A model generated the notes under the pieces. It made no database searches. It saw only the letters and a list, made by a program, of their open reading frames with translations, and had not been told where the DNA came from. Shown here piece after piece: positions 12,193 through 62,688 of a stretch of DNA of 64,000 bases; position 1 is the stretch's first letter; every line of letters starts with the position of its first letter. The translations under genes and the position numbers were made by a program. Source of the stretch: an uncultured Gammaproteobacteria bacterium (GTDB taxonomy: Bacteria > Patescibacteriota > Microgenomatia > Levybacterales > UBA12049); NCBI GenBank assembly GCA_965230895.1, contig OZ246394.1, forward strand, positions 101,879 through 165,878. The letters run 5' to 3'.

Positions 12193-13176
12193 ATGATGCG
12201 TTATTATGATTTCAATGGTCCTCAAGCGAGGCGGCCATCCAGAAGAGTCAAAAGAAAAAGTATGAAAGTAGTGAGCTTTATGCTGCTTGCTTTTATCGTG
12301 CTACCAACAATAATTGGGACGTATGTCTTTAATCGTGATCAATTCTCTTCTAAGAAAGAGACATTGGCTATGACTATTGCTCCAACCGCAACTTCAATTC
12401 CTACAGCGACACCACCATTACAATCAGATGAGATTGATAAAATTGTGAAGGGAGAGCTTGAAGGTACAAAAGGAAAATATAGTGTTGTCGTCCGTAATTT
12501 AAATACTGGAGAAGCGTATGCATATAATGAACATCAGAAATACCAAGCAGCAAGTCTTTATAAATTGTGGGTTATGGCTGTTGCTTATAACCAAATCCAA
12601 GATGGTAAATTAAAAGAAAACGAAGTATTGGCGAGTGACGTTGCAACTATTAACGCAAAGTTTAACATTGGAACTGAATCTGCGGAGTTGAAAGAAGGTT
12701 CTGTATCGTTCCCAGTAAATCAAGCATTACAGCAGATGATAACAATTTCTCATAATTATGCAGCCTTACTTCTTGCACAGAAAGTAAAATTATCTAACAT
12801 TACAACTTTCTTAAAGGATCACAACTACACTGAATCAAAAGTAGGTTCTCCGCCACAAACGACTGCATATGATGTAGCGAATTTTATGGAGGATCTCTAT
12901 GATGGCAAGTTGGCAAACGCAGAAAAAACTTCAACTATGATTGATCTCTTAAAACGCCAACGTTTAAATAATAAATTACCAAAGAATCTTCCTGAGGGAA
13001 CTGTAATCGCTCATAAAACAGGCGAGCTCAGCGGAGTTACTCATGATGCTGGAATTGTATATACAGATAAGGGTAATTATATAATTGTTGTCATGTCTGA
13101 AAGTACTTTACCTGCGGCAGCAGAAGATCGGATAGCAAATATTTCAAAAGATATCTACGAGTATTTTGAGAAGTAA
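12193..13176 (+). CDS. class A beta-lactamase-like serine hydrolase, membrane-anchored
   Basis: N-terminal TM. S-x-x-K (AASLYK), a possible SDN-like element and KTG (AHKTGEL) in the order expected for class A beta-lactamase/PBP-like folds. Confidence 0.55.
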   Translation: MMRYYDFNGPQARRPSRRVKRKSMKVVSFMLLAFIVLPTIIGTYVFNRDQFSSKKETLAMTIAPTATSIPTATPPLQSDEIDKIVKGELEGTKGKYSVVVRNLNTGEAYAYNEHQKYQAASLYKLWVMAVAYNQIQDGKLKENEVLASDVATINAKFNIGTESAELKEGSVSFPVNQALQQMITISHNYAALLLAQKVKLSNITTFLKDHNYTESKVGSPPQTTAYDVANFMEDLYDGKLANAEKTSTMIDLLKRQRLNNKLPKNLPEGTVIAHKTGELSGVTHDAGIVYTDKGNYIIVVMSESTLPAAAEDRIANISKDIYEYFEK

Positions 13177-13177
13177 A

Positions 13178-13729
13178 TTAGTCTTCAGGCTCTGGAGGTA
13201 AAAATTCTTCGCCACCTGAATCAGCTTTTTGTGGATATTCGTTATATTTTAACCAATATACATAGGTACATCCAGTAGCTTTACGTGTTTTACTATCCCA
13301 ACCCGCTGTGCTGCATTTTTTCATTTTCTTTCCAGCATTTGTTGTAAAAAGTACTAATTTATTTCCACATTCAGGGCAATCTTCATCCAAAGGTTCGGTA
13401 CTTCCGTTGATCCATTCAACATAATCACATCCAACAACTTTTTTCGCAGCTGAATCCCAAGATCCTGCAGAGCATTTCTTCATCTTCTTTCCGAAGCGAG
13501 TTGTTGAAAGTATAAGCTTTGAACCACATTTAGGGCATTTCTCATCAAGTTCTTCTGGTTCAACTTCAAACCACTTTACATAGTCACATCCTACGTTCTT
13601 TTTTGTTTCTGGGTCCCAGGAACCTTTTGTGCATCTTTGAAGTTTTCGTCCTGTTTTTGTAACGGTTATTTCTCCAAGAGGAGCCCCACATTTAGGGCAA
13701 ACTTCATCTTTTTGTTTTTCTTCACTCAT
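13178..13729 (-). CDS. protein of three tandem topoisomerase-type C4 zinc-ribbon modules with acidic C-terminal tail
   Basis: Three ~55-aa repeats, each CP(K/E)CG-x11-13-G(R/K)K(L/M)(Q/K)(R/K)C-x3-(S/A)(G)WD-x6-K-x3-GC(D/T)YV(K/E/Y)W. Total 12 Cys. The tail ends ...GGEEFLPPEPED. Confidence 0.65.
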   Translation of the reverse strand: MSEEKQKDEVCPKCGAPLGEITVTKTGRKLQRCTKGSWDPETKKNVGCDYVKWFEVEPEELDEKCPKCGSKLILSTTRFGKKMKKCSAGSWDSAAKKVVGCDYVEWINGSTEPLDEDCPECGNKLVLFTTNAGKKMKKCSTAGWDSKTRKATGCTYVYWLKYNEYPQKADSGGEEFLPPEPED

Positions 13730-13882
13730 GAATACCTATGTTACTGGTTTTATAATTCAGAGTCAAGAGAGACAAAATATGATCAACTATCTCATCTTAG
13801 TATAATTTTATATTATATAAATATATGAGGATTGATGTATAATCTTAAGCAAACGTTAAGGAATCCATTCTACAATTGATTT

Positions 13883-14554
13883 ATGAGAATTTTGGTAGTC
13901 GAAGATGAAGAGAAAATAGCAAATGCAATGAAGCGTGCTTTAGAGCTCCAAAAGTATGCAGTGGATGTCGCATACAATGGAGATGATGGTTTGGACCTGG
14001 CAATAGGAGAAAAGTTTGATTTGATAATTCTTGATTTAATGTTACCTGGTGTTGATGGGTTAACTATATGCAAAAAAATCCGCTCAGAAGGTATTCATAC
14101 ACCTGTACTTATGCTCACTGCTAAAGGTCAGATATCAGATAAAGTGACTGGACTTGATATGGGTGCGGATGATTATATGCAGAAACCTTTTTCATTCGAG
14201 GAGCTCTTTGCACGAATTAGAGCTCTCGTTCGGCGACCTACACATGTAAGTGAGCCAGTATTAAAGATTGGAAATCTTTCTCTGGATCCAACGAACTTTG
14301 CAGTAAAAAGGGAGGGACAAAATATTATCCTCTCCGTTAAAGAATATTCTCTCCTAGAATACTTAATGAGAAATAAGAAAAATGTTTTATCCCGTGAACA
14401 GATAGTTTCTCATGTCTGGGATTATGATGCGGATATCTTGCCAACTACTGTTGAGGTGCATATGAAACATCTTCGTGATAAAGTAGATACACCTTTTGCC
14501 CATAAGTATATAAAGACAATCCGCGGCAGAGGGTACACGATAAACGAAGATTAA
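13883..14554 (+). CDS. OmpR-family two-component response regulator
   Basis: Receiver domain (DLIILDLMLPGVDG, phospho-acceptor Asp) plus winged-helix C-terminal domain (TIRGRGY). Confidence 0.85.
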   Translation: MRILVVEDEEKIANAMKRALELQKYAVDVAYNGDDGLDLAIGEKFDLIILDLMLPGVDGLTICKKIRSEGIHTPVLMLTAKGQISDKVTGLDMGADDYMQKPFSFEELFARIRALVRRPTHVSEPVLKIGNLSLDPTNFAVKREGQNIILSVKEYSLLEYLMRNKKNVLSREQIVSHVWDYDADILPTTVEVHMKHLRDKVDTPFAHKYIKTIRGRGYTINED

Positions 14555-14556
14555 TC

Positions 14557-15561
14557 ATGTTTGAATCAGCCCGTTTGAAATTAACTGCCTGGTATTTGCT
14601 CATAATCATGCTTATTAGCGTGTTTTTTAGCATAGCCTTTTATCATTCCTCGACACGTGAAATACAAATGCTTATCGATCGTATCAAGATGGACCAGCAA
14701 AGAACAAAAGATAGTGTATTTATATTTAGCAATAGACCCTCATTGCCATTTACACTGGATGAACTTGAAGATGCCAAACAAAGAATAATGATTAACTTAA
14801 CTATTCTTAATGGAATCATCCTTGTTTTTGCAGGCGCTGCTGGTTATTTTCTTGCTGGGAGAACATTGCGACCTATTAAGATAATGATCGATGAGCAAAA
14901 TCAATTTATTTCTAGCTCTTCGCACGAACTTCGTACTCCTATTACTTCAATGCGCGCTGAGATGGAAGGGAATCTCATGGAAAAACATATATCAGATAAA
15001 AGAGCACGTGCTCTTATAAAAAGCAATTTAGAAGAACTAGCAGAGCTTCAAGAGTTAACAAATAATCTCTTACAGCTTGCACAAGTGCATTCAATCCAAT
15101 TAGCAAAATACGATGAAGAGGTTTCAATAAAAAATACATTACTTTCTGTTCAGAAAAAGATTTCGCCTTTAGCAAAAAAGAAAAATATTCGGTGCGACTT
15201 TAATTTAGTTGATGGAATTGTTATTGGTCAGGAAAAAAATTTGAGGGAAGTTTTCGTGATCCTTTTGGAAAACGCGATTAAATATAGTCCAGAAAAATCG
15301 ACAATTAAAGTCGTTTCAAAAAAGATAAAAAATACAATTGAAGTTTCCGTAAAAGACAAGGGGATTGGTATCTCCGAAACAGACCTTCCAAGGATATTTG
15401 AACGATTCTATCGTGCTGATAAATCACGCCATAAAGATGGTTATGGACTTGGACTTTCGATCGCTAAAAAGATTGTAGAAATGCATGGTGGATCAATAAA
15501 AGCAGAAAGTAAAGAAGGCAAAGGTTCTCTATTTATTGTGACACTTCCGCTTAAAAAGTAA
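14557..15561 (+). CDS. sensor histidine kinase (HisKA + HATPase_c)
   Basis: Two N-terminal TM segments. H-box SSSSHELRTPITSM. N/G boxes (LENAIKYS, DKGIGIS, GYGLGLSIAK, HGGSI). Confidence 0.85.
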   Translation: MFESARLKLTAWYLLIIMLISVFFSIAFYHSSTREIQMLIDRIKMDQQRTKDSVFIFSNRPSLPFTLDELEDAKQRIMINLTILNGIILVFAGAAGYFLAGRTLRPIKIMIDEQNQFISSSSHELRTPITSMRAEMEGNLMEKHISDKRARALIKSNLEELAELQELTNNLLQLAQVHSIQLAKYDEEVSIKNTLLSVQKKISPLAKKKNIRCDFNLVDGIVIGQEKNLREVFVILLENAIKYSPEKSTIKVVSKKIKNTIEVSVKDKGIGISETDLPRIFERFYRADKSRHKDGYGLGLSIAKKIVEMHGGSIKAESKEGKGSLFIVTLPLKK

Positions 15562-32479: not shown

Positions 32480-33796
32480 ATGGAAAAAAAATTGAAGTAT
32501 ATCATCGATTCTATACCAGATTTTGAAATTAGACTAAAAGCGGGTAAAAGAATATTAAAGAAACTTGAGAAATATACTGCAACTATTGAAAAAATTGAGA
32601 AAAAAGTGTTTACAGGTGGAGAAGGGCTTACTGCTCAGCTGGAAGAAGCAAAGAGAATCAATAAAGAAATTGCTGCATATTACACAGAAGCAAGCGAAAA
32701 CCTATCGACTCTAAAAGAAACAGTAAAGAGTATTGATTTGCTGAAAGAGGCTTTCGAAACTTCTTTGGAAACTACGAATACTTTGATAAGTAATGTAAAT
32801 GATCCTGAAACGGGAATTCAATCAAAGTTGAATGCTGCTAATGAAGATAAAAATGAGACTAGGAGTATCCTCTTGTCTGCTGAAAACACAAAAAAAGAAT
32901 TAGATACTAAAGTGGAATCTATTCAAGGACAGTTGCAAGAAATGGAACAACTTTATGATGATTTTATCGAAATAAAAACTAAAATTGATGACCCTACGAA
33001 CGGATTAATTAAGGTACTTTCTTCATCAACTGCAAAAAGAGATGAAATATTTGCAATAAAGAAAAAGGCAGATACTCTATTTGCTGATATTTTAAAAACT
33101 CGAGATGAATCTGTCGCGTTCACTACTGAAATTAAGAAGTACAAGGATGAGACAGAGCTTAATACTGAAATTATTCGAGCGTACGCGAAAGAGAGTGAAG
33201 AAAACAATAGTAAGATTGCACAAATATATGATATAGCAACAGGTAGGGGACTCGCGGGATCTTTTGATAAACGGAAAAAGGAGCTTTTACTGTCTGTTTG
33301 GATATGGGGCGCAGTTCTAGTTGTAAGCGTAGCTTCATATGTATTTGTTTTAATGTGGATTTATCACGAAACATTCCAGAAAGGGATCCCAAATATAGAT
33401 GTAGCAGCTTGGTATCGCCTAACCTTAACGTTACCTATTTTAGGTCTGATTGCATTTGCCGCATATCAGTATTCACGTGAGCGCAATTTTTTAGAAAAGT
33501 ATGCTTTTAAATCTGCAACTGCAGTTGCTCTAGAGTCATATACAAAACTTCTCACAGATAAGTTTTCAATGCATGAAACTAAGATTGTTAGATTTGTATT
33601 GAATGCAATGACAATGATATATAGAGAGCCTCACGACATTGAAAAGAAATATAAATTCAATTTTGGTATCAATAAAATCTTTAATCTTGGTGTAGAGGAA
33701 GATAAAATGGAGGAGATAACTGACTTTATTGAGAAATCAGTTGATGATGCAGTGGATATTAAAAATGAGAAGAATAAAGGAAAACCAACAAGATAA
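32480..33796 (+). CDS. coiled-coil protein with two central TM helices and a C-terminal domain, unknown function
   Basis: About 270 aa of K/E-rich heptad sequence, two TM helices (LLLSVWIWGAVLVVSVASYVFVLMWIY; LTLTLPILGLIAFAAYQY), then a ~110-aa C-terminal domain. Confidence 0.45.
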   Translation: MEKKLKYIIDSIPDFEIRLKAGKRILKKLEKYTATIEKIEKKVFTGGEGLTAQLEEAKRINKEIAAYYTEASENLSTLKETVKSIDLLKEAFETSLETTNTLISNVNDPETGIQSKLNAANEDKNETRSILLSAENTKKELDTKVESIQGQLQEMEQLYDDFIEIKTKIDDPTNGLIKVLSSSTAKRDEIFAIKKKADTLFADILKTRDESVAFTTEIKKYKDETELNTEIIRAYAKESEENNSKIAQIYDIATGRGLAGSFDKRKKELLLSVWIWGAVLVVSVASYVFVLMWIYHETFQKGIPNIDVAAWYRLTLTLPILGLIAFAAYQYSRERNFLEKYAFKSATAVALESYTKLLTDKFSMHETKIVRFVLNAMTMIYREPHDIEKKYKFNFGINKIFNLGVEEDKMEEITDFIEKSVDDAVDIKNEKNKGKPTR

Positions 33797-34993: not shown

Positions 34994-36637
34994 ATGCCTA
35001 TCGAACGATTTCGTCAAGGAGCAGAGCGAAGAAAACGCAAACATTTGATCGATTCTGCGCTTGCTCAAAAAGATGAACAATCTGGGTCCTCTTCAGTAGC
35101 GAGTGAACCTCAACAAGCTTCAGGAAAAGAAGCGCCATTCTTTTCTGGTAAACGTAAAGGAGTTATCTTAACGACAGCTCTGGGTGCAGCAGCAGTCTTT
35201 CTTGGTAACAAAGTATATCGAGATAAGGAAACAGGTGAATTCCAAAAAGAAGCGTTAGCAAAGTCAGTAAAGAAGGCTGCGACTATTGGTCCTGTTGAAG
35301 GATTGATCGGTGTTGCGGGTATTACAATCCGTGATCATCGAGAATTAACGCATCGCAGTGTTGAGCTTGCTCCGTGGTTGCAAAAGGTACTGGATTTTGA
35401 GCAACGTTCTTTGGGCGTCCGTGAACCATACACTTGGGCATCTGTGCATCGAATTCATCATGAAATGACAGATGCTTCCTTATATCCTTTCTACCTGGCG
35501 TACCATGCTGTCAAATCTGCTGAAGCAAATGGTGCTCCTGTAGCCCCTGAACATAAATTTAAAAATTTTGATCCATTTGTAGAGCATTTTGATTTGAAAA
35601 CAGTTATGGATATAGGAGAAAGTGCTGATGCTGTTGTCAAAAAACGTATGGGAGATCTCTACGAACCTCCAATATTTGATAATCCGGAACAAATTAAAGA
35701 CGTGATTGAAGCCGAAAAACCTTTGTATTGGTATCCTGATTACAGCAAGAAAAAAGGGAGAGACGAATATGAGCCAAATGATATTGCCAGAATTCTACTT
35801 ACTGACCCGCATTCTCCAGCATTAGTTCGTCGCGAAAATGGAGTGCAAGGTGTGGCAATGACAAATATAAGTCTCTATCAGACCGCTGCTGCAATGTTCC
35901 GACATTTTCCTGAGATAAAACCTGAAGATCTTCAACGACCAGAGGATTTCGATCCTACTTACCAAGAACGCCATAAAAATGATGCGAAGAAAACATTTTA
36001 TGCTGGTTTTGTAGGACAAGCTGCTGCAATGTATGTCGTAAATCGGGATTATACATGGAGAGGTGCAGGAAGAGCAGTTTTGGAAGGAGCAGCTATCAAT
36101 GGTCTCAGAGCAGCGACAGAATTAGTTGGAGGAAATGTCACAAATTCAGCTGGGCATATGGGAGATCCTGTCCAAACAGAACTTGCTCAAGCATTCTTAA
36201 ATAGGATTTATGATATAAAACTCAAGCCTGATGGATCAATATCTACAAATACAGTAGGTAAAGGAGTTGTCGGGAGAGTTGCAAGTTGGGCGACGCTTGA
36301 TGAAGTTGGTGGGCAAGAAGTCCATCATCGAGCGCCTTGGAAGGTACGATATACAGATGCAGAGGGAAGACAGGCCGTTGTCGAGGCTCCATGGGGAAGC
36401 TTCCTTGAGTATCTCGCCAAAAATGAACATGTCAGTGCAATTAACGAAGGTGCAGGATTTGCTGGTGAAGAAAATGATCGTCCTGATGTTGTACATCGTG
36501 CTGTACGAAAAATTCAAGATGCAAGAGCTGAGCAGTATCAAAGAGATTATCCTGATGGAGAACCTGAGGAAGAACCTCCACTTTCAGGTGGAATAAGTCG
36601 TCTTGGTAGAACTCTTTTTAGCCGATTCCGCAGATAA
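34994..36637 (+). CDS. Delta9-desaturase-family (acyl-CoA/acyl-lipid desaturase-like) di-iron His-box protein, atypical: reduced TM content and a large hydrophilic insertion
   Basis: Box 1 DHRELTHRS (cf. HRLWSHRS). Exactly 29 aa later, box 2 YTWASVHRIHHEM (cf. YEWARDHRAHHKF). Box 3 GGQEVHHRAPW (cf. GEGWHNYHHAFP). One clear TM (GVILTTALGAAAVFLG) before box 1. About 300 aa between boxes 2 and 3 versus ~130 in known enzymes. Confidence 0.55.
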   Translation: MPIERFRQGAERRKRKHLIDSALAQKDEQSGSSSVASEPQQASGKEAPFFSGKRKGVILTTALGAAAVFLGNKVYRDKETGEFQKEALAKSVKKAATIGPVEGLIGVAGITIRDHRELTHRSVELAPWLQKVLDFEQRSLGVREPYTWASVHRIHHEMTDASLYPFYLAYHAVKSAEANGAPVAPEHKFKNFDPFVEHFDLKTVMDIGESADAVVKKRMGDLYEPPIFDNPEQIKDVIEAEKPLYWYPDYSKKKGRDEYEPNDIARILLTDPHSPALVRRENGVQGVAMTNISLYQTAAAMFRHFPEIKPEDLQRPEDFDPTYQERHKNDAKKTFYAGFVGQAAAMYVVNRDYTWRGAGRAVLEGAAINGLRAATELVGGNVTNSAGHMGDPVQTELAQAFLNRIYDIKLKPDGSISTNTVGKGVVGRVASWATLDEVGGQEVHHRAPWKVRYTDAEGRQAVVEAPWGSFLEYLAKNEHVSAINEGAGFAGEENDRPDVVHRAVRKIQDARAEQYQRDYPDGEPEEEPPLSGGISRLGRTLFSRFRR

Positions 36638-36687: not shown

Positions 36688-37005
36688 ATGAGAACGTATG
36701 AATTAACACTTGTTTTGCGTCCAACGCTTAAAGAAGCAGATCGAAAGAAACTTCTTGAAACCATCAAAGATTGGTTGGGACATGTTAAAATTGCAAAGGA
36801 AAACGATTGGGGTCAAAAAGCTTTGGCATATCCAATCAAAAAAGAAGACGCTGGATATTACGTTATGTTGGAACTTGAAGTTGAAGATGCAAAGGTTTCA
36901 GCAAAAGATAAAGTAAGTAAACCAACAGGCGTTCCAGAGGATTTGGAACAAAGAATAATTCGAACAGACAATATTCTAAGACATTTGTTATTGAGAACTA
37001 AGTAA
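36688..37005 (+). CDS. rpsF: 30S ribosomal protein S6
   Basis: MRTYELTLVLRPTL... is the classic bS6 N-terminus. rpsF-ssb-rpsR operon. Confidence 0.9.
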   Translation: MRTYELTLVLRPTLKEADRKKLLETIKDWLGHVKIAKENDWGQKALAYPIKKEDAGYYVMLELEVEDAKVSAKDKVSKPTGVPEDLEQRIIRTDNILRHLLLRTK

Positions 37006-37490
37006 TGGCAAGAAGCTTAAATAGAGTACAATTAATTGGAAATCTGACCCGTGATCCAGAATTGCGTTATACACCAGCTGGAAATGCGGTTTGTACTTTT
37101 GGCTTAGCTACCAATAGATCTTGGACAACAGATGCAGGAGAAAAAAGAGAAGAAGTAGACTTTCACAGGGTTGTGGCTTGGAACAAATTGGCTGAATTAT
37201 GTAGTCAATTTTTGGTAAAAGGTCGCAAAGTGTATGTCGAAGGACGACTTTCAACTCGAAACTGGACAGCTCAAGATGGAGCTCAGAAATCTACAACAGA
37301 AGTTGTGATTGATGATATGATTCTTCTTGATAACAAAGGCGGTTCAGGATCAGGAGAAAATCAACCAGAAGAACACTTTAATCCAGAGGAAGATGCAAAG
37401 CCAGCAAAGAAAGCTGCGCCAAAGCATGAAGAAGCTCCTTCATCAAACAGTAAAGAAGATGAAGTAGCACCGGATGATATTCCGTTTTAA
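37005..37490 (+). CDS. ssb: single-stranded DNA-binding protein
   Basis: OB-fold N-terminus (NRVQLIGNLTRDPELRYTPAGNAVCTFGLA). Gly/Ser-rich linker. Acidic C-terminal tail ending DDIPF. Confidence 0.9.
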   Translation: MARSLNRVQLIGNLTRDPELRYTPAGNAVCTFGLATNRSWTTDAGEKREEVDFHRVVAWNKLAELCSQFLVKGRKVYVEGRLSTRNWTAQDGAQKSTTEVVIDDMILLDNKGGSGSGENQPEEHFNPEEDAKPAKKAAPKHEEAPSSNSKEDEVAPDDIPF

Positions 37491-42364: not shown

Positions 42365-43942
42365 TCAATCTTGCAGCTGTCCCAAGTAATTCTCAGTAGG
42401 TAAAGTATTATTCATCTGGTATCGTTGGATTCTTTTCCGGTTCTTAGAGCTCTTAATATATTGCTTTAATATTTTGTACATATCTAAATCAAACGTGACT
42501 TTCTGGATAAGATCATCTTTTATATTTCCTTCAGCATCGACATGAACATTCCCGATATAACACCAATTATCAATGATAAAAAACTCTTTTGTTCCATCAA
42601 TTGCATCTTCTTGAATAGTAATTGGACCGCTAAATGGCCATGGCAGAATCCTGGATTCATTCAAAGATGTTTCTAACCTTAGATTATAAATCTCTGGTCT
42701 CTCAATATTTACACATGCACCCTTACATCGCTCAAGACGATGTGCAAAGCATGCAGCACTTGTTTTCTCTAAGCCCAAAAGTTTCTCGCAGAGTGCATGC
42801 TCCTTTGCAATGTTTGCCAGAAAAGATTTTGCCTGTTTGCGAGAACGGAAAAACCCTAAGAAGTTTTCAAGTCCATCTGGTGAAATTGTCGTGATTGGTT
42901 CAATAAAACACTCTTTATATCCTTGGTTATTTAGCTTGCTTTTTAAGGCAATTAACTCATGCTTTATCCGAGAACGTTTGTTGTAGATCGGCAGCATTTC
43001 TTTGATCATTCTCGATTCAAGAAAGAGCGCTCCAAGCTCTCCTGCAGTTGTTATCGTTTCAATGCTTTCAATCTGTTGCGAAATCTTCATTTCAGTTGTT
43101 GAAGCAATATCTGCAGAGAAGTGGCTCAAAACACGATTACGGATGTTAATACTTTTACCAACATAAAGGGGGATGAGGCTTTTTGTTTCGTATTTTGGTT
43201 TATCTCCAAGCTTCATTTGATCCTTCACTGTATCATCAGGTCCATAAAAGATATAGACACCAGGTTTATCAGGTAGTTTTTCTAATTCTTCCATTGGAAG
43301 TTTGATTGGCAATGACGGCTTCTTCATTGTCTTTGCCAGCGCTTGTTTCACAATCTCTGGATCGACATTTTTCTGGATATGCTTGTAAAATTCAAATAGT
43401 ACCTTCGCGTCATCAAAGGCTCTGTGGCGGCTGTCACAAGTTATATTGCACTGTTGAATTACGGCATCAAGATTGTGCCGTGGCCATTGAGGATAAAGCA
43501 TTCTTGAAAGTCTCACTGTGCAAAAATGCTTCGCATTGTATGTGATGTTCTCTCGCATGAGTTCTTGTTTCAAAAAGCTGTAATCAAACCGAACATTATG
43601 CGCGACAAAAGTACAATCTGCGAGGATTTCAATTATGTCGTCCTTCACTGCACGAAATGTTGGGGCATTTTCTAAATCCTTTCCTGTAATTCCAGTAAGT
43701 GATGTAATTTCTTGGGGGATATAGGTTTGCGGATTAATTAACGTTTGGAATGTATCTACTAGTTCACCATCTTCAACTCTGAGGATTCCAATTTCAATAA
43801 TTCGATTTCGAGAAGCACTTATTCCTGTAGTTTCAATATCGACGAAGGCTAACTTTGAAGGCAGCATAGGAAAGAAATAATAGCAAATTCGTATTTTGTT
43901 TGCAATCTCAACCATTGCTTTGCTTACAAGCATATGCGACAA
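42365..43942 (-). CDS. DnaQ-like DEDDh 3'-5' exonuclease fused to a GIY-YIG endonuclease domain (Cho/UvrC-N-terminal-like)
   Basis: Exo I FVDIETTG, Exo II VAHNVRFDYSFL, Exo III YxxxD-like region with HRAFDDAK. GIY-YIG: GVYIFYG...PLYVGKSINIRNRVLSHF. Cys/His-rich C-terminal region. Confidence 0.7.
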   Translation of the reverse strand: MSHMLVSKAMVEIANKIRICYYFFPMLPSKLAFVDIETTGISASRNRIIEIGILRVEDGELVDTFQTLINPQTYIPQEITSLTGITGKDLENAPTFRAVKDDIIEILADCTFVAHNVRFDYSFLKQELMRENITYNAKHFCTVRLSRMLYPQWPRHNLDAVIQQCNITCDSRHRAFDDAKVLFEFYKHIQKNVDPEIVKQALAKTMKKPSLPIKLPMEELEKLPDKPGVYIFYGPDDTVKDQMKLGDKPKYETKSLIPLYVGKSINIRNRVLSHFSADIASTTEMKISQQIESIETITTAGELGALFLESRMIKEMLPIYNKRSRIKHELIALKSKLNNQGYKECFIEPITTISPDGLENFLGFFRSRKQAKSFLANIAKEHALCEKLLGLEKTSAACFAHRLERCKGACVNIERPEIYNLRLETSLNESRILPWPFSGPITIQEDAIDGTKEFFIIDNWCYIGNVHVDAEGNIKDDLIQKVTFDLDMYKILKQYIKSSKNRKRIQRYQMNNTLPTENYLGQLQD

Positions 43943-48110: not shown

Positions 48111-49385
48111 CTATCTTTGTCCAGCTTTTGCAGCCATTTTAGTTCCAGCAATCGTTGCCACACTTGGCGCCGCAACAACTGCCGCAGCCGCAGCTGTTGC
48201 GGCTAGAAGGGCTACACCAAGAGCTTTCAAAAGAGTCTTAAGGAATCCTAATCTCTTTTTTTCATTTTCATCTCCATCCTTTTCAGCTTGTGCCATCTTG
48301 TCATCCAGTGAATCCGCCATTGCATTAGCAGCTGCGGCTGCACCTTCTGGGCCTGCGATATTTGCATTTACATTTGCGGCTTCAAGAACTGTTTTTACAT
48401 CTTCCACATACGCAGGATTTTCTGCTATTGTATCAAGCACAGATTTAAAATCTGTTCCAAGATCAGCTAATTCTTTTACATTCTCAGCTAATCGTTTCGT
48501 TGCTTGCTGTTCTGGCGTCAATTCAGAATCCGCCTTATTCTCAGTATCCGCAACTTCCTGGGCAATTTGTTCTGCTTCTGCATTTACTGTCGCAGGAGTA
48601 GCTTCTGGAGGAGGAGCAGAGTTATTTGTTGCTTCAACTGTTGCCCCTTGAGCTCTTTCATCAGCTGATGGTTCTTTGTATTGAGCTTGACCTTCCCAGT
48701 CTTTCCAATCTTTTTTCACTTGCTCAGCAGTTGCTTGTTCTCCTGTTTGGGGCGCTGGTGGTGTTTGCTCCGGTGCTTGAGGTGCTGTTGGTTGCGCCTG
48801 CTCTGCGGTTTGATTAGTTTGAGGTGCGGTGTCAGCTTGTTGCTTGAGCATATCCTCTGCGCCTTGAGATACTTGCTTTTCCATATCACTTAACGCCTTT
48901 TTGGCTGCTTCATTTCCACCATCTGCAAGGGCCTTGAGCTCTTCTGGAGTTTTGTTCATCATGTCATTGATTTGGTCTTGTTGAGCATCCAAGTTCTGAT
49001 TCTCTTGCGCAGGGGGTTGGTCACCTGGTTGCTCTGATCCTGACTCAGGCGGATTTGGATTTTCTACAGCTGGATTTGTTCCTTCTGGGGTAGTTTGTGC
49101 TGCACCTTGTTCCTTTTGCATCGTATCAACTAAATTATCACCTTGATTTAATTCATTTGCGAAATTTTTGACAGTATCTTCAATGTCTTGAGGGGTTTTT
49201 GCTGAATCTACAGTATTCTGTAAGTTTTCAGCTGCAGCAGATCCTGCATTTTGATTCTCTTGTCCGGCTGGATTTGTCGCTGGTGAGCCAGCTTCTACTT
49301 GTGGAGCAGCAGATGATTCAGGTTTTGAAACCGGAGGTGGAGTTGCTTCTGGTGTTGGTTGTGGCCCTGATGGCGCTTCAGCCAT
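48111..49385 (-). CDS. intrinsically disordered Ala/Gln/Pro/Glu-rich protein with C-terminal TM anchor
   Basis: About 390 aa of low-complexity sequence, then LGVALLAATAAAAAVVAAPSVATIAG. GC-richer than its surroundings. Translationally coupled (8-bp overlap) to the upstream 113-aa ORF. Confidence 0.5.
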   Translation of the reverse strand: MAEAPSGPQPTPEATPPPVSKPESSAAPQVEAGSPATNPAGQENQNAGSAAAENLQNTVDSAKTPQDIEDTVKNFANELNQGDNLVDTMQKEQGAAQTTPEGTNPAVENPNPPESGSEQPGDQPPAQENQNLDAQQDQINDMMNKTPEELKALADGGNEAAKKALSDMEKQVSQGAEDMLKQQADTAPQTNQTAEQAQPTAPQAPEQTPPAPQTGEQATAEQVKKDWKDWEGQAQYKEPSADERAQGATVEATNNSAPPPEATPATVNAEAEQIAQEVADTENKADSELTPEQQATKRLAENVKELADLGTDFKSVLDTIAENPAYVEDVKTVLEAANVNANIAGPEGAAAAANAMADSLDDKMAQAEKDGDENEKKRLGFLKTLLKALGVALLAATAAAAAVVAAPSVATIAGTKMAAKAGQR

Positions 49386-59778: not shown

Positions 59779-61584
59779 ATGGCAGCACTAAAAATCAAAC
59801 ACACTTCCTGGAATTTAAAACCTCTGTTCAAATCAGATAATGATCCTGCAATTACAAAACAGCGCGAAGAAGTAGAAAAAGCAAATAAAAAGTTTGTCGC
59901 CAAATGGTCAAAAAGAGAAGATTATTTAACCGATCCAAAAGTACTCAAAAATGCTTTGGATGAATACGAGCTGCTGTCGAAAAACTATGGAACTGATGGT
60001 AACGAAGGGTATTATTTCTGGCTTCGTTCACAACAAGATCAAAACGACCAAGCGATTAAAGCAAAGTTTGCAAAAGTTTTAGATTTCAGTAATAAGCTTC
60101 GAAATGAACTTCAGTTCTTTGAATTACGTTTGGCGAAGGTAGAAAAAGCAAAGCAAAAAGCATTTCTTAAAGATCCTCAATTGAAAGAATACAAGCATTT
60201 TCTTGAAAAGATTTTCCGACAAGCAGATTACTTGTTGAGTGAAGCAGAAGAGAAGATTATGAATTTGAAATCCGATCCAGCGCACATGAAATGGGAGCAA
60301 ATGCTTTCAGGATTTTTATCGAAAGAAGAACGCGAAGTTCTCACCGAATCAGGAAAGAAAGAAAAATTAAATTTTGAGCAATTGATTAGTTTGACCGCAA
60401 GCAAAAAGAAAAGGGTGCGTGATGATGCAGCGAAAGCAGTGAATGAGGTTTTTGAAAAATTGGTAGAAACTGCAGAAGCTGAAATAAATGCAATCCTTGC
60501 GAATAAAAAGATTGACGATGAATTACGCAAAATGCCTCGTCCAGATTTCTCCCGACATTTAGCAGATGATATGGAGAGTGAAGTCGTCGACGCTATAGTC
60601 GAAACAGTATCAAAGCGCTACAAAATTTCACAGAAGTATTACCAGTTTAAAGCAAAGCTGATGGGTGTTTCGAAAATGGAATACCATGAACGGAGTGTCC
60701 CTTTTGGCAAAGTCGATAAAGCATATTCTTTTGAAGATGGAGCTGCGCTTGTTCATAAAGTATTTACCGATTTAGACCAGGAATTTGCAGATGCTCTTTC
60801 ACGATTCTTGGAAAACGGCCAAATAGATGTCTATCCTGCAAAAGGGAAAAGGGGAGGGGCATTTTGTGTTTATTGGCAAGTCGACCAACCTACTTATGTC
60901 ATGTTAAATTATACTAATAAGTTACGTGATATTGAGACTTTAGCACATGAAATGGGGCATGGTATCAATGATGAATTAATGAAAAAGCAAAACGCGTTGA
61001 ATTTTGGGACTCCGACATCAACTGCCGAAGTTGCAAGTACGTTCATGGAAGATTTTGTTTTGCAAGAGATCCTTAAAACAGCGGATGAAGAAACACGTTT
61101 TGGATTGATGATTTCAAAACTTGATACTGAGGTCGCAACAATTTTCCGTCAGATTGCATGTTATCAATTCGAAGCAGATCTGCATCAGCAGTTTCGCGAA
61201 AAAGGATATCTTTCTCATCAGGAGATTGGGAAGATCTTCCAAAAGCATATGGCTGCATATATGGGACCAGGGGTAGAGCAGTCAAAGGGTTCTGAGAATT
61301 GGTGGGTTTATTGGTCACACATAAGAACGTTCTTTTATGTCTATTCATATGCAAGCGGTTTACTCATCTCAAAGTCAATGCAAAATGGTGTGAAAGCTGA
61401 TCCCAAGTTTATTGATAAAGTGAAAGAATTTTTATCCGCTGGGACATCCGCATCACCAAAGGATATTTTCAAGAATGTGGGCATAGATATTACTGATACA
61501 GCATTCTGGGACAATGGTCTTGATGAGGTAGAAAACTTATTGAAAGAGACGCAAAAACTGGCAAAGAAGATGGGCAAGATCTAG
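59779..61584 (+). CDS. pepF: oligoendopeptidase F (M3B family)
   Basis: HEMGHGIND (HExxH) with downstream E; the 601 aa length and helical architecture fit M3B. Confidence 0.8.
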   Translation: MAALKIKHTSWNLKPLFKSDNDPAITKQREEVEKANKKFVAKWSKREDYLTDPKVLKNALDEYELLSKNYGTDGNEGYYFWLRSQQDQNDQAIKAKFAKVLDFSNKLRNELQFFELRLAKVEKAKQKAFLKDPQLKEYKHFLEKIFRQADYLLSEAEEKIMNLKSDPAHMKWEQMLSGFLSKEEREVLTESGKKEKLNFEQLISLTASKKKRVRDDAAKAVNEVFEKLVETAEAEINAILANKKIDDELRKMPRPDFSRHLADDMESEVVDAIVETVSKRYKISQKYYQFKAKLMGVSKMEYHERSVPFGKVDKAYSFEDGAALVHKVFTDLDQEFADALSRFLENGQIDVYPAKGKRGGAFCVYWQVDQPTYVMLNYTNKLRDIETLAHEMGHGINDELMKKQNALNFGTPTSTAEVASTFMEDFVLQEILKTADEETRFGLMISKLDTEVATIFRQIACYQFEADLHQQFREKGYLSHQEIGKIFQKHMAAYMGPGVEQSKGSENWWVYWSHIRTFFYVYSYASGLLISKSMQNGVKADPKFIDKVKEFLSAGTSASPKDIFKNVGIDITDTAFWDNGLDEVENLLKETQKLAKKMGKI

Positions 61585-61669
61585 TGCCGGGAGGGGGAGT
61601 CGAACCCCCACGAGGTATAATCCTCAAAGGTTTTTGAGACCTTCGTGTCTGCCATTCCACCACCCCGGC
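61585..61669 (-). tRNA. tRNA-Leu (anticodon CAA)
   Basis: The reverse complement folds as a cloverleaf: acceptor GCCGGGG/CCCGGCA, D-arm, anticodon stem AAGGT/ACCTT with loop CTCAAAA (anticodon CAA), a long variable arm (class II, Leu-type), and T-arm GGGGG-TTCGACT-CCCCC. No encoded CCA. Confidence 0.8.
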
Positions 61670-61725
61670 AAATTTGTTATTGTTCAACCTTGAAAATAAC
61701 GCTTTCCTATTATATACTGCATTGT

Positions 61726-62688
61726 ATGACTATTCAAGAAATATATGACCTCGCAATTGAAATGGCTATAAAAGCTGACCCACGCGGAGCAAGTTTCGTT
61801 AAAAAAAGACTCGAGAAAGCAAACAAAGAATATAAAGATCTCCCAGAAAAGAAGAAAAAATACTTTGATGTTGAAACCCTCACAAATCCATATTCAGATA
61901 CAAGAATGTATCACGGAAATCCAAAGCAACAGGTAAAAAAGATTTTGGCTGGAATCGATATCTCAAGCGCAGAAGTCTTACTCTTTGACCGACTGAATGA
62001 AAAAGGAAAGGGATTAGATCTCCTTATTGCGCATCATCCAGAAGGAATGGCATTGACAGCACTTCATGAAGTTATGGATCTGCAAACAGATATGTACGGA
62101 GTGAATGGAATGCCGCTTAATGTGTCTCATGCTTTGATGCAGGGACGAATGGTGGATGTACAACGAAAGATTCATCCAACTAATTATAATCAGGCAATTG
62201 ATACCGCAAAGCTTTTGGATGTACCTTTCATGTCACTTCATACAATTTGGGACAATCTCGGTAATCAATTTATTTTGGATTATATAAAGGGTAAAGATTA
62301 CGACACAGTTGGAGAAATCATGGAAGATTTGATGAAGATTCCTGAGTATATAGCAGCTACAAAAGAGAAGGCTGGTCCATTGGTTATTTCCGGAAGTGAA
62401 AAGAGTAGAGCAGGTAAAGTTGCTGTTTTCTATACTGGCGGGACAAATCCGGCAAAAGAAATTTATATCGAACTTGCAAAGACAGGTATTGGTACAATCA
62501 TTGATATGCATATGCCAGATGATGCAGTGAAAGAAATGAAGAAGCTTCATGTGAATGTCATCAATGCTGGACATATGTCGAGTGATTCAATCGGAGCAAA
62601 CCTCTTCTTTGACACTCTTGAAAAGAAGGGTGTAGACGTGGTAGCATGTTCTGGGTTCATCCGAGTTCCAGGAAAGGATCGAAAATAA
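61726..62688 (+). CDS. NIF3-family (YqfO/YbgI-like) dinuclear-metal-centre protein
   Basis: LLIAHHPEG (HHP motif) and C-terminal NAGHMSSDS metal-ligand region. The ATG at 61726 was chosen because the longer ORF-track model overlaps the tRNA. Confidence 0.5.
   Translation: MTIQEIYDLAIEMAIKADPRGASFVKKRLEKANKEYKDLPEKKKKYFDVETLTNPYSDTRMYHGNPKQQVKKILAGIDISSAEVLLFDRLNEKGKGLDLLIAHHPEGMALTALHEVMDLQTDMYGVNGMPLNVSHALMQGRMVDVQRKIHPTNYNQAIDTAKLLDVPFMSLHTIWDNLGNQFILDYIKGKDYDTVGEIMEDLMKIPEYIAATKEKAGPLVISGSEKSRAGKVAVFYTGGTNPAKEIYIELAKTGIGTIIDMHMPDDAVKEMKKLHVNVINAGHMSSDSIGANLFFDTLEKKGVDVVACSGFIRVPGKDRK

Follow-up and report, generated by a model that had tools for sequence, protein, structure and literature searches.

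The closest described counterparts of the protein considered here are the zinc ribbons in domains D5-D7 of E. coli topoisomerase I (TopA; PF01396; PDB 4RUL, 9GDA) and the stand-alone E. coli protein YrdD. The TopA ribbons bind single-stranded DNA (ssDNA) mainly via stacking on an aromatic residue of the beta3 strand (F616/Y728), whereas D6 has a Leu at this position, does not bind ssDNA and contacts the catalytic core instead (PMC4678816). The TopA tail and its zinc ribbons bind RNA polymerase (PMC4678816, PMC10969213), and according to a review, ribbons without these aromatics of beta3 may not bind ssDNA (PMC10969213). For stand-alone YrdD, Zn-dependent binding of ssDNA is reported as cited in PMC4678816.

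Here we describe a gene at 13178..13729 on the minus strand of a 64,000-nucleotide stretch of contig OZ246394.1 (the whole of this stretch is called the window below), which encodes a free-standing array of three such ribbons. The repeats are TopA-type zinc ribbons of a distinct subtype, referred to here as W-loop, and the full-length protein belongs to one tight family that is under strong purifying selection. We read it, with a probability of roughly one half, as a TopA-tail-derived nucleic-acid-binding accessory protein specific to the Levybacteria, a group of tiny uncultured bacteria, with a partner-docking or regulatory tail, analogous to E. coli YrdD.

Three tandem zinc ribbons of the W-loop subtype

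An earlier note on this DNA, made from its letters and open reading frames (ORFs), had described a 183-amino acid product of three tandem four-Cys repeats that resemble topoisomerase zinc ribbons, with an acidic tail and no catalytic domain. The repeat structure was confirmed. Twelve cysteines (11/14/33/48, 65/68/86/101 and 118/121/139/154) fall into three modules of the form CPxCG-x17/18-C-x14-C(D/T)YVxW with a period of 53-54 amino acids, and the self-offset BLOSUM62 score of the protein, 243 at offset 53, far exceeds chance, as none of 500 shuffles scored above 25. In a codon alignment the repeats share 55-58% identity at the DNA level, close to the 60% estimated in the note, and 38-57% at the protein level; the triplication is therefore old. 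The exact 183-amino acid protein is already present in public collections, and gene callers make the same gene call. The gene and its product are laid out as follows.

13178..13729, minus strand: whole zinc-ribbon gene, ATG start, 183 amino acids, stop codon TAA at 13178-13180
13562..13723, minus strand: ribbon 1, residues 3-56, putative Zn ligands C11, C14, C33 and C48
13403..13561, minus strand: ribbon 2, residues 57-109, putative Zn ligands C65, C68, C86 and C101
13241..13402, minus strand: ribbon 3, residues 110-163, putative Zn ligands C118, C121, C139 and C154
13214..13240, minus strand: linker of predicted disorder, residues 164-172 (EYPQKADSG), varying in length and sequence in the homologue alignment
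13187..13213, minus strand: conserved tail motif GEEFLPPEP, putative partner-docking peptide, residues 173-181
13181-13186, minus strand: variable acidic residues after the tail motif

The assignment to topoisomerase-type ribbons rests on profile comparisons. The protein matches the Pfam family PF01396 (Zn_ribbon_Top1) with 36.6 bits (E 3.9e-9), the cut-off being 32; the best stretch is limited to residues 62-81, which correspond to the first knuckle and hairpin of the profile (positions 1-20 of 39). We further built two profiles, one of this ribbon type and one of the classic TopA/YrdD ribbons, and compared them with hhalign, which aligned them with a probability of 97.8% (E 1.1e-12). The Cys4 pattern C-x2-C-x17/18-C-x14-C occurs three times and fits the Topo_C_ZnRpt ligand layout. 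The alignment also demonstrates what sets the subtype apart. Between Cys3 and Cys4 there are nine extra residues beginning with W-D, which lengthen this spacer relative to the classic profile; the 'YP' that precedes Cys4 in classic ribbons is missing; and Met (Leu in ribbon 1) stands opposite the classic beta3 Phe/Tyr. All three ribbons have an invariant Trp in the beta3-beta4 loop (W38, W91 and W144), located at Cys3+5 instead of Cys3+3, and a second invariant Trp further on (W53, W106 and W159). At the position of the TopA beta3 aromatic, L30, M83 and M136 are likewise invariant, so none of the three ribbons carries the classic aromatic. An invariant R78-F79-G80 is found in ribbon 2 only and is akin to G(R/K)(Y/F)G, the motif on the beta2-beta3 turn that, as an alternative to an aromatic on the beta3-beta4 loop, makes up the second nucleotide site of TopA ribbons (as given in PMC10969213).

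Structure prediction agrees with this assignment. An AlphaFold2 model of the whole protein, made with 52 homologues, is all-beta with a mean predicted local distance difference test score (pLDDT) of 78, and is disordered at residues 1-6 and 170-177. Modelled alone, a single repeat reaches a pLDDT of 83 and takes up the ribbon fold, an antiparallel beta-sheet of four strands like that of E. coli TopA D5-D7, with two extra short strands within the insertion; the nine-residue insertion, which carries the invariant Trp, is predicted to form an extra beta-hairpin. The strands predicted for ribbon 1 span residues 17-23, 29-33, 37-39, 44-46 and 51-54. A Foldseek search with the whole model returned E. 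coli TopA as its top two PDB matches (9gda and 4rul, probability 0.92-0.93). Sequence and profile searches of PDB gave TopA matches only, none of them significant, the best alignment of the ribbon profile being with the D6 segment of E. coli TopA (E 0.18, not significant). No significant match was found among viral folds in BFVD, and no match to the protein by tblastn in 50,697 cultured-phage records. PHROGs gave weak matches only, to families of unknown function, and PADLOC assigned the protein to no anti-phage defence family.

Neither a Toprim nor a Topoisom_bac catalytic domain was found in the 183-amino acid protein (Pfam) or in the flanking genes, as the earlier note had stated for the protein. 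The acidic tail GGEEFLPPEPED is present as well, the C-terminus reading ...SGGEEFLPPEPED; mean pLDDT falls to 69 over residues 161-170 and to 47 over 171-180, and the values below 50 at 170-177 reach into the tail motif. The picture of charge had to be revised. Lys-rich segments do occur, but inside the ribbons, in the beta3 strand (KKMKK) and the Cys3-Cys4 loop, instead of flanking them, and the inter-ribbon segments are acidic (EVEPEELDE, STEPLDED). With 31 Lys and Arg against 30 Asp and Glu residues, the protein is about neutral and not the basic array that had been supposed.

A word-indexed protein search returned 2094 homologous clusters at E <= 1e-3. The best 120 of these 2094 clusters are all 177-199 amino acids long and 72-85% identical to the protein, and where a name is given among them, it is either 'topoisomerase DNA-binding C4 zinc finger domain-containing protein [Candidatus Levybacteria]' or the JGI name for COG0551, 'ssDNA-binding Zn-finger/Zn-ribbon topoisomerase 1'. 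In a scan with one genome per species, relatives were found in at least 486 species genomes. Among the best 80 of 486 loci (L001-L080), to which all locus comparisons below refer, identity is 70-94%, the contigs are low in G+C, and the reliable-looking record titles are mostly Levybacteria, Microgenomates or Patescibacteria. The titles of loci from metagenome-assembled genomes are unreliable, since many Levybacteria-like loci with 34-46% G+C and syntenic genes carry titles such as 'uncultured Gammaproteobacteria', 'Methylomirabilota', 'Acidiferrales' or 'Eisenbacteria'. An exhaustive search of 1.84 billion representatives (clustered at 50% identity) gave 231 matches at E <= 1e-3 and seven at 1e-30, nearly all seven being fragments. 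Full-length proteins with three ribbons form a single tight family.

Within this family, all 12 Cys and all six Trp are invariant across 52 homologues, and 79 of the 80 loci have exactly three ribbons in the protein and none elsewhere. The ratio of nonsynonymous to synonymous substitution rates (dN/dS) is 0.04 against the closest orthologue (L001), with synonymous sites saturated against the others and an overall range of 0.04-0.13. Orthologues for the tail, divergence and clustering counts were obtained from 76 of the 80 loci; over these, the median proportions of nonsynonymous (pN) and synonymous (pS) differences are 0.17 and 0.79. The zinc-ribbon protein is 81-85% identical where its syntenic neighbours reach 34-71%. 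The tail motif GEEFLPP follows the variable linker in all 76 locus orthologues and is nearly invariant in the homologue alignment, and a six-frame search of the window and the 80 loci found it in no other ORF; with the residues after it, the motif reads GEEFLPP(E/D)P. The protein is under strong purifying selection, in line with the earlier proposal of an old triplication maintained by selection.

W-loop ribbons on other proteins and the proposed function

The distant matches of the protein include four true TopA proteins, with Toprim and Topoisom_bac domains, that carry one or two W-loop ribbons at the C-terminus (P0150, P0153, P0165 and P0187). These ribbons are 42-60% identical to those of the window protein and are missed by Pfam in all four TopA proteins. 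In P0150 the first ribbon is nearest to ribbon 1 (49%) and the second is nearest to ribbons 2 and 3; P0150 and the window protein are 51% identical over 102 residues. This order, R1-like and then R2-like, argues for an origin of the levybacterial protein from such a TopA tail, ribbon 3 being a later duplicate. Both P0150 and P0187 have Trp at conserved Gly positions (CPKCW..., ESLWIWRPSTY), which indicates that they come from genomes reading UGA as Gly (code 25) and were translated with UGA as Trp in public collections. P0153 is titled Mycoplasma sp.

About 70 further representatives have one W-loop ribbon behind another domain. The ribbon follows the annealing domain in single-strand annealing proteins of the Erf (P0161) and Rad52/22-like (P0189) types, and is also found on phrog_11717-like proteins (P0168, P0181 and P0205) and, behind an uncharacterised N-terminal domain, in a family of 47 clusters that includes P0172. 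The ribbons of these annealing-type and mobile-element proteins are 52-62% identical to those of the window protein. At L089:1778-4178, the gene of single-ribbon P0172 lies directly downstream of a Prim-Pol/DnaB_C primase-helicase gene, with NinG-like and RNA-ligase genes nearby, and the P0189 gene (L090:7902-8522) is part of a phage contig that also carries terminase, ParB_N, YopX and Acb2/Tad1-like genes. Several single-ribbon proteins end in an acidic tail with an aromatic/Pro motif (…DETPDF, …EEEDYPFPEEEL) reminiscent of GEEFLPPEPEE. Searches for the W-loop ribbon carriers gave no match in the cultured-phage collection (tblastn with P0174) or in IMG/VR (P0174 and the ribbon profile). The W-loop subtype is thus found in the company of enzymes acting on single-stranded DNA.

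Another of these single-ribbon proteins, P0148 (L093:464-925, 153 amino acids), has a Rho_N domain followed by a linker and by a ribbon that shares 69% identity with ribbon 3, and ends in GGEPAEE; it may be a sister architecture of a related lineage. P0144 (3045 amino acids, E 2e-18, 16 matched stretches) was discarded as a compositional false positive of the all-protein search, being a Cys-free repeat protein.

A nucleic-acid-binding or protein-recruiting role, as the note had proposed, is plausible. In our preferred reading, each ribbon would bind one Zn(II), and the array would bind nucleic acid that is exposed as a single strand or unwound, in a variant of the TopA binding mode, using its Lys-rich beta3 strands, its invariant Trp and Tyr residues and, in ribbon 2, the R-F-G turn. 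The GEEFLPP tail could dock onto a DNA-transaction enzyme, such as TopA, RNA polymerase or a replication or repair protein; alternatively, it could fold back on the basic ribbons and be autoinhibitory. The protein would then act like a free-standing TopA C-terminal domain, as proposed for YrdD. The role proposed in the note has indirect support from the presence of this ribbon subtype on TopA and on annealing proteins of the Erf and Rad52-like types.

Several observations weigh against this reading. An ssDNA-binding role is weakened because none of the three ribbons has the beta3 aromatic for stacking: L30, M83 and M136 replace the residue central to ssDNA stacking in TopA, the situation is the same as in D6, and the caution in the review cited above (PMC10969213) concerns ribbons of this kind. 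The overall charge (31 K+R, 30 D+E) gives the protein no net basic character. The AlphaFold2 models are of moderate confidence only, and a PDB sequence search found no solved structure matching the W-loop subtype. Finally, the gene neighbourhood offers no pointer to a pathway. Based on tblastn with 19 window proteins and de novo clustering of the ORFs within 8 kb of the gene in the 76 loci, no neighbouring family recurs in more than 18 of them.

The same missing aromatic speaks for another reading, which we consider clearly less probable than the preferred one: the protein would be an adaptor between proteins, or a regulator, with no binding to nucleic acid, and its ribbons would resemble D6 or the face that contacts RNA polymerase. 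Candidate partners would be RNA polymerase, a topoisomerase, gyrase (as for YacG) or the DDIPF tail of SSB, with GEEFLPP as a second docking site. Besides the D6-like beta3 position in all three ribbons, it is favoured by the D6 segment being the best, non-significant PDB alignment of the ribbon profile, by the reported binding of RNA polymerase by TopA zinc ribbons, and by the invariant tail motif on a disordered linker, which is typical of docking peptides. Annealing proteins that bear the ribbon are known to work with host SSB, a point we also count in its favour. The small zinc-finger protein YacG is known to bind gyrase, but its similarity to the window protein is limited to the CxxC knuckle (NCBIfam E 0.1). 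Against it, a nucleic-acid surface would account equally well for the invariant Lys-rich beta3 strands, for the R-F-G turn that ribbon 2 carries and for the exposed Trp and Tyr residues, likewise invariant, and the gene neighbourhood links no partner to the gene.

A second alternative starts from the TopA proteins with W-loop ribbons and takes the protein as a detached, trans-acting C-terminal domain of a levybacterial TopA that lost its own ribbons, the two forming a two-subunit type IA topoisomerase, perhaps through GEEFLPP. P0150, a TopA of a UGA-recoded lineage, ends in ribbons of the same subtype in the same order. One W-type ribbon suffices for an E of about 1e-8 to 1e-11 in the all-protein search, yet only four TopA proteins are among the 150 matches listed and none of them is evidently levybacterial, which suggests that levybacterial TopA has no W-loop ribbons. 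The very high conservation would fit an essential housekeeping role. However, tblastn with the four TopA catalytic cores found none within 10 kb of the gene in the window or in the 80 loci, and no TopA core is among the called genes listed around the most divergent full-length orthologue (65% identity), even though the products of a fission usually remain neighbours. In addition, W-type ribbons are rare on TopA (four representative clusters) and so not clearly ancestral, and the ribbon-bearing TopA proteins stop right after the last ribbon with no tail. We regard a trans-acting TopA subunit as unlikely. The same holds for the wider idea that a TopA C-terminal domain has turned into a separate essential polypeptide acting in trans, either as the subunit just described or as a hub without an oligonucleotide-binding (OB) fold that sits on unwound DNA and recruits enzymes in the way of SSB. 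If this were true, the W-loop ribbon would be an undescribed nucleic-acid- or SSB-tail-binding module common to TopA, phage annealing proteins and the zinc-ribbon protein.

It is more doubtful still that the target is the ribosome, a transcript or an R-loop, with the protein being an RNA-binding and not a DNA-binding factor. Such a role is consistent with the appearance of Elf1, TFIIS and RPA12 among weak structural and sequence matches, the fold being found in transcription elongation and RNA-binding proteins, with the fusion of the related single ribbon of P0148 to a Rho_N domain, and with a conservation that resembles that of translation and transcription components. A pseudogene remnant, a frameshift fragment of topA (which the earlier note had named as a possible refutation) or a chance Cys-rich ORF, for which only the domain type and the automatic JGI name 'DNA topoisomerase-1' of one homologue speak, is effectively refuted by the intact ORF of about 176-225 amino acids in at least 486 species genomes, the dN/dS of 0.04-0.13, the lack of an adjacent catalytic domain and the gene's own AT-rich upstream region.

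Genomic surroundings

In the window, a beta-lactamase-family gene (12193..13176) converges on the zinc-ribbon gene, the two stop codons lying one base apart (13176 and 13178-13180), and no terminator-like hairpin was found between them (13176-13180). On the other side, genes for an OmpR-type response regulator (13883..14554) and a histidine kinase (14557..15561) are divergent from it across the following spacer.

13730..13882, no strand: AT-rich divergent intergenic region shared with the response-regulator gene, 153 bp, 25.5% G+C

The G+C content of this spacer is in the lowest 0.4% of all 153-bp windows, the whole window having 37.7%, which bears out its earlier description as extremely AT-rich. 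Both divergent promoters are presumably located within it. Sigma-70-like hexamers occur on the minus strand (TATACA-18-TATAAT at 13841-13812 and TTGACT-17-TAACAT at 13766-13738), in numbers no higher than in shuffles, and a scan for promoters and terminators around the gene did no better than shuffles.

The link to the two-component system implied by this arrangement does not extend beyond close relatives. The response regulator and kinase lie within 3 kb of the gene in only 9-11 of 80 loci, all of them close relatives of the window. As the neighbour families vary in this way, linkage with topA, primase or the two-component system was rejected; the most divergent orthologue likewise has no conserved neighbourhood. 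The neighbours are mostly on the opposite strand, and the gene therefore looks monocistronic. No ORF of the 64-kb window has sufficient length or similarity to be TopA.

The remaining window genes are ordinary housekeeping genes, including those for DnaB, HisRS, Ddl, alanine racemase, a Pif1-like helicase and a canonical SSB. The latter (37005-37490, plus strand) has an OB-fold region 51% identical to that of E. coli SSB, a Lys/Glu-rich linker and the tip ...EVAPDDIPF. In four related loci (L013, L025, L051 and L056), SSB is encoded within 10 kb of the zinc-ribbon gene.

Some further features of the window were recorded in passing. A tRNA-Leu(CAA) gene (61584-61669, minus strand; ARAGORN and Rfam) overlaps the GTG start of a listed ORF at 61645..62688 (plus strand), and the true start of that gene is therefore further downstream. 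At 48111-49385 (minus strand), a 424-amino acid low-complexity protein with a high content of Ala, Glu, Gln and Pro is encoded; it has a hydrophobic anchor at its C-terminus, matches no Pfam family and explains the local rise in G+C (0.425) and the strong AT skew of -0.295 at 48-50 kb. The 525-amino acid product of 42365-43942 (minus strand) has an N-terminal RNase_T/DnaQ-type exonuclease domain (residues 33-184), its remaining 340 or so residues resembling, as judged by eye, a GIY-YIG/UvrC-type nuclease. Two ORFs on the plus strand, 32480-33796 (438 amino acids) and 34994-36637 (547 amino acids), have no Pfam match, and the 34-38 kb stretch has a G+C content of 0.41-0.42, above that of the rest of the window.

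Comparison with known systems

Compared with domains D5-D7 of E. coli TopA, the window protein lacks the Toprim/Topoisom_bac core and has the added GEEFLPP tail. Its ribbons differ by the nine-residue W-loop, by Met or Leu in place of the beta3 Phe/Tyr (as in D6), by the absence of 'YP', and by C-x-Y-V-x-W after Cys4. Membership in the type IA topoisomerases was rejected, as no catalytic domain was found in the protein, its flanks, the window or the 80 loci. The TopA proteins with W-loop ribbons carry them in cis to a full core, in one or two copies and not three, and have no acidic tail, whereas the Erf, Rad52-like and phrog_11717-like carriers have a single ribbon on an annealing or uncharacterised N-terminal domain and lie in phage-like contigs.

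Among free-standing proteins, YrdD (b3283, 180 amino acids, 'putative DNA topoisomerase', COG0551) is likewise a protein of about 180 residues made solely of tandem TopA-type Cys4 ribbons. BLASTP of YrdD from E. coli K-12 against the window protein gave an E of 5e-7 with 27% identity and many gaps, a similarity at the level of the ribbons only. YrdD has four classic ribbons with G(K/R)(F/Y)G and 'YP', but no W-loop insertion and no GEEFLPP tail, and its gene belongs to the smf-smg-yrdD-tsaC-aroE cluster, whereas the levybacterial gene stands alone among variable neighbours. Given four classic ribbons against three W-loop ribbons and the different contexts, orthology was rejected and the likeness taken as one of domains.

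GRF fingers are mainly eukaryotic. The zf-GRF domain (APE2, NEIL3, TOP3A) was rejected as a match on a PF23549 score of 20.2 against 27 bits and a structural score no better than that of generic ribbons. Bacterial SSB is analogous in layout only, its nucleic-acid-binding body being followed by a disordered linker and a C-terminal acidic-hydrophobic peptide that is conserved. The window protein, however, has no OB fold, and its motif differs in sequence and is not at the extreme C-terminus. Replacement of SSB was rejected, since the canonical SSB with its DDIPF tip is encoded in the same window.

If the preferred reading is true, the Levybacteria would retain, as a free-standing copy, the module with which topoisomerase I recognises unwound DNA, and this copy is more constrained than all the neighbours compared. 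That annealing proteins of the Erf and Rad52-like types bear this module too hints at a common role in ssDNA transactions or in contacts with SSB. The W-loop ribbon would also test how such ribbons recognise their ligand, because it has no solved structure, is only half-matched by Pfam and has its stacking residue replaced. The case should be of interest mainly to specialists in topoisomerases and candidate phyla and does not suggest a system of a new kind. YrdD is a precedent for arrays of TopA ribbons that stand alone, and both NCBI and JGI name the family in generic terms; the protein is therefore not a new kind of thing. What is new compared with these systems is, first, the W-loop subtype with its altered ligand-contact residues and its spread over TopA, annealing proteins and the levybacterial protein, and second, the fixed three-ribbon architecture with an invariant tail motif, strongly conserved in one candidate-phylum lineage.

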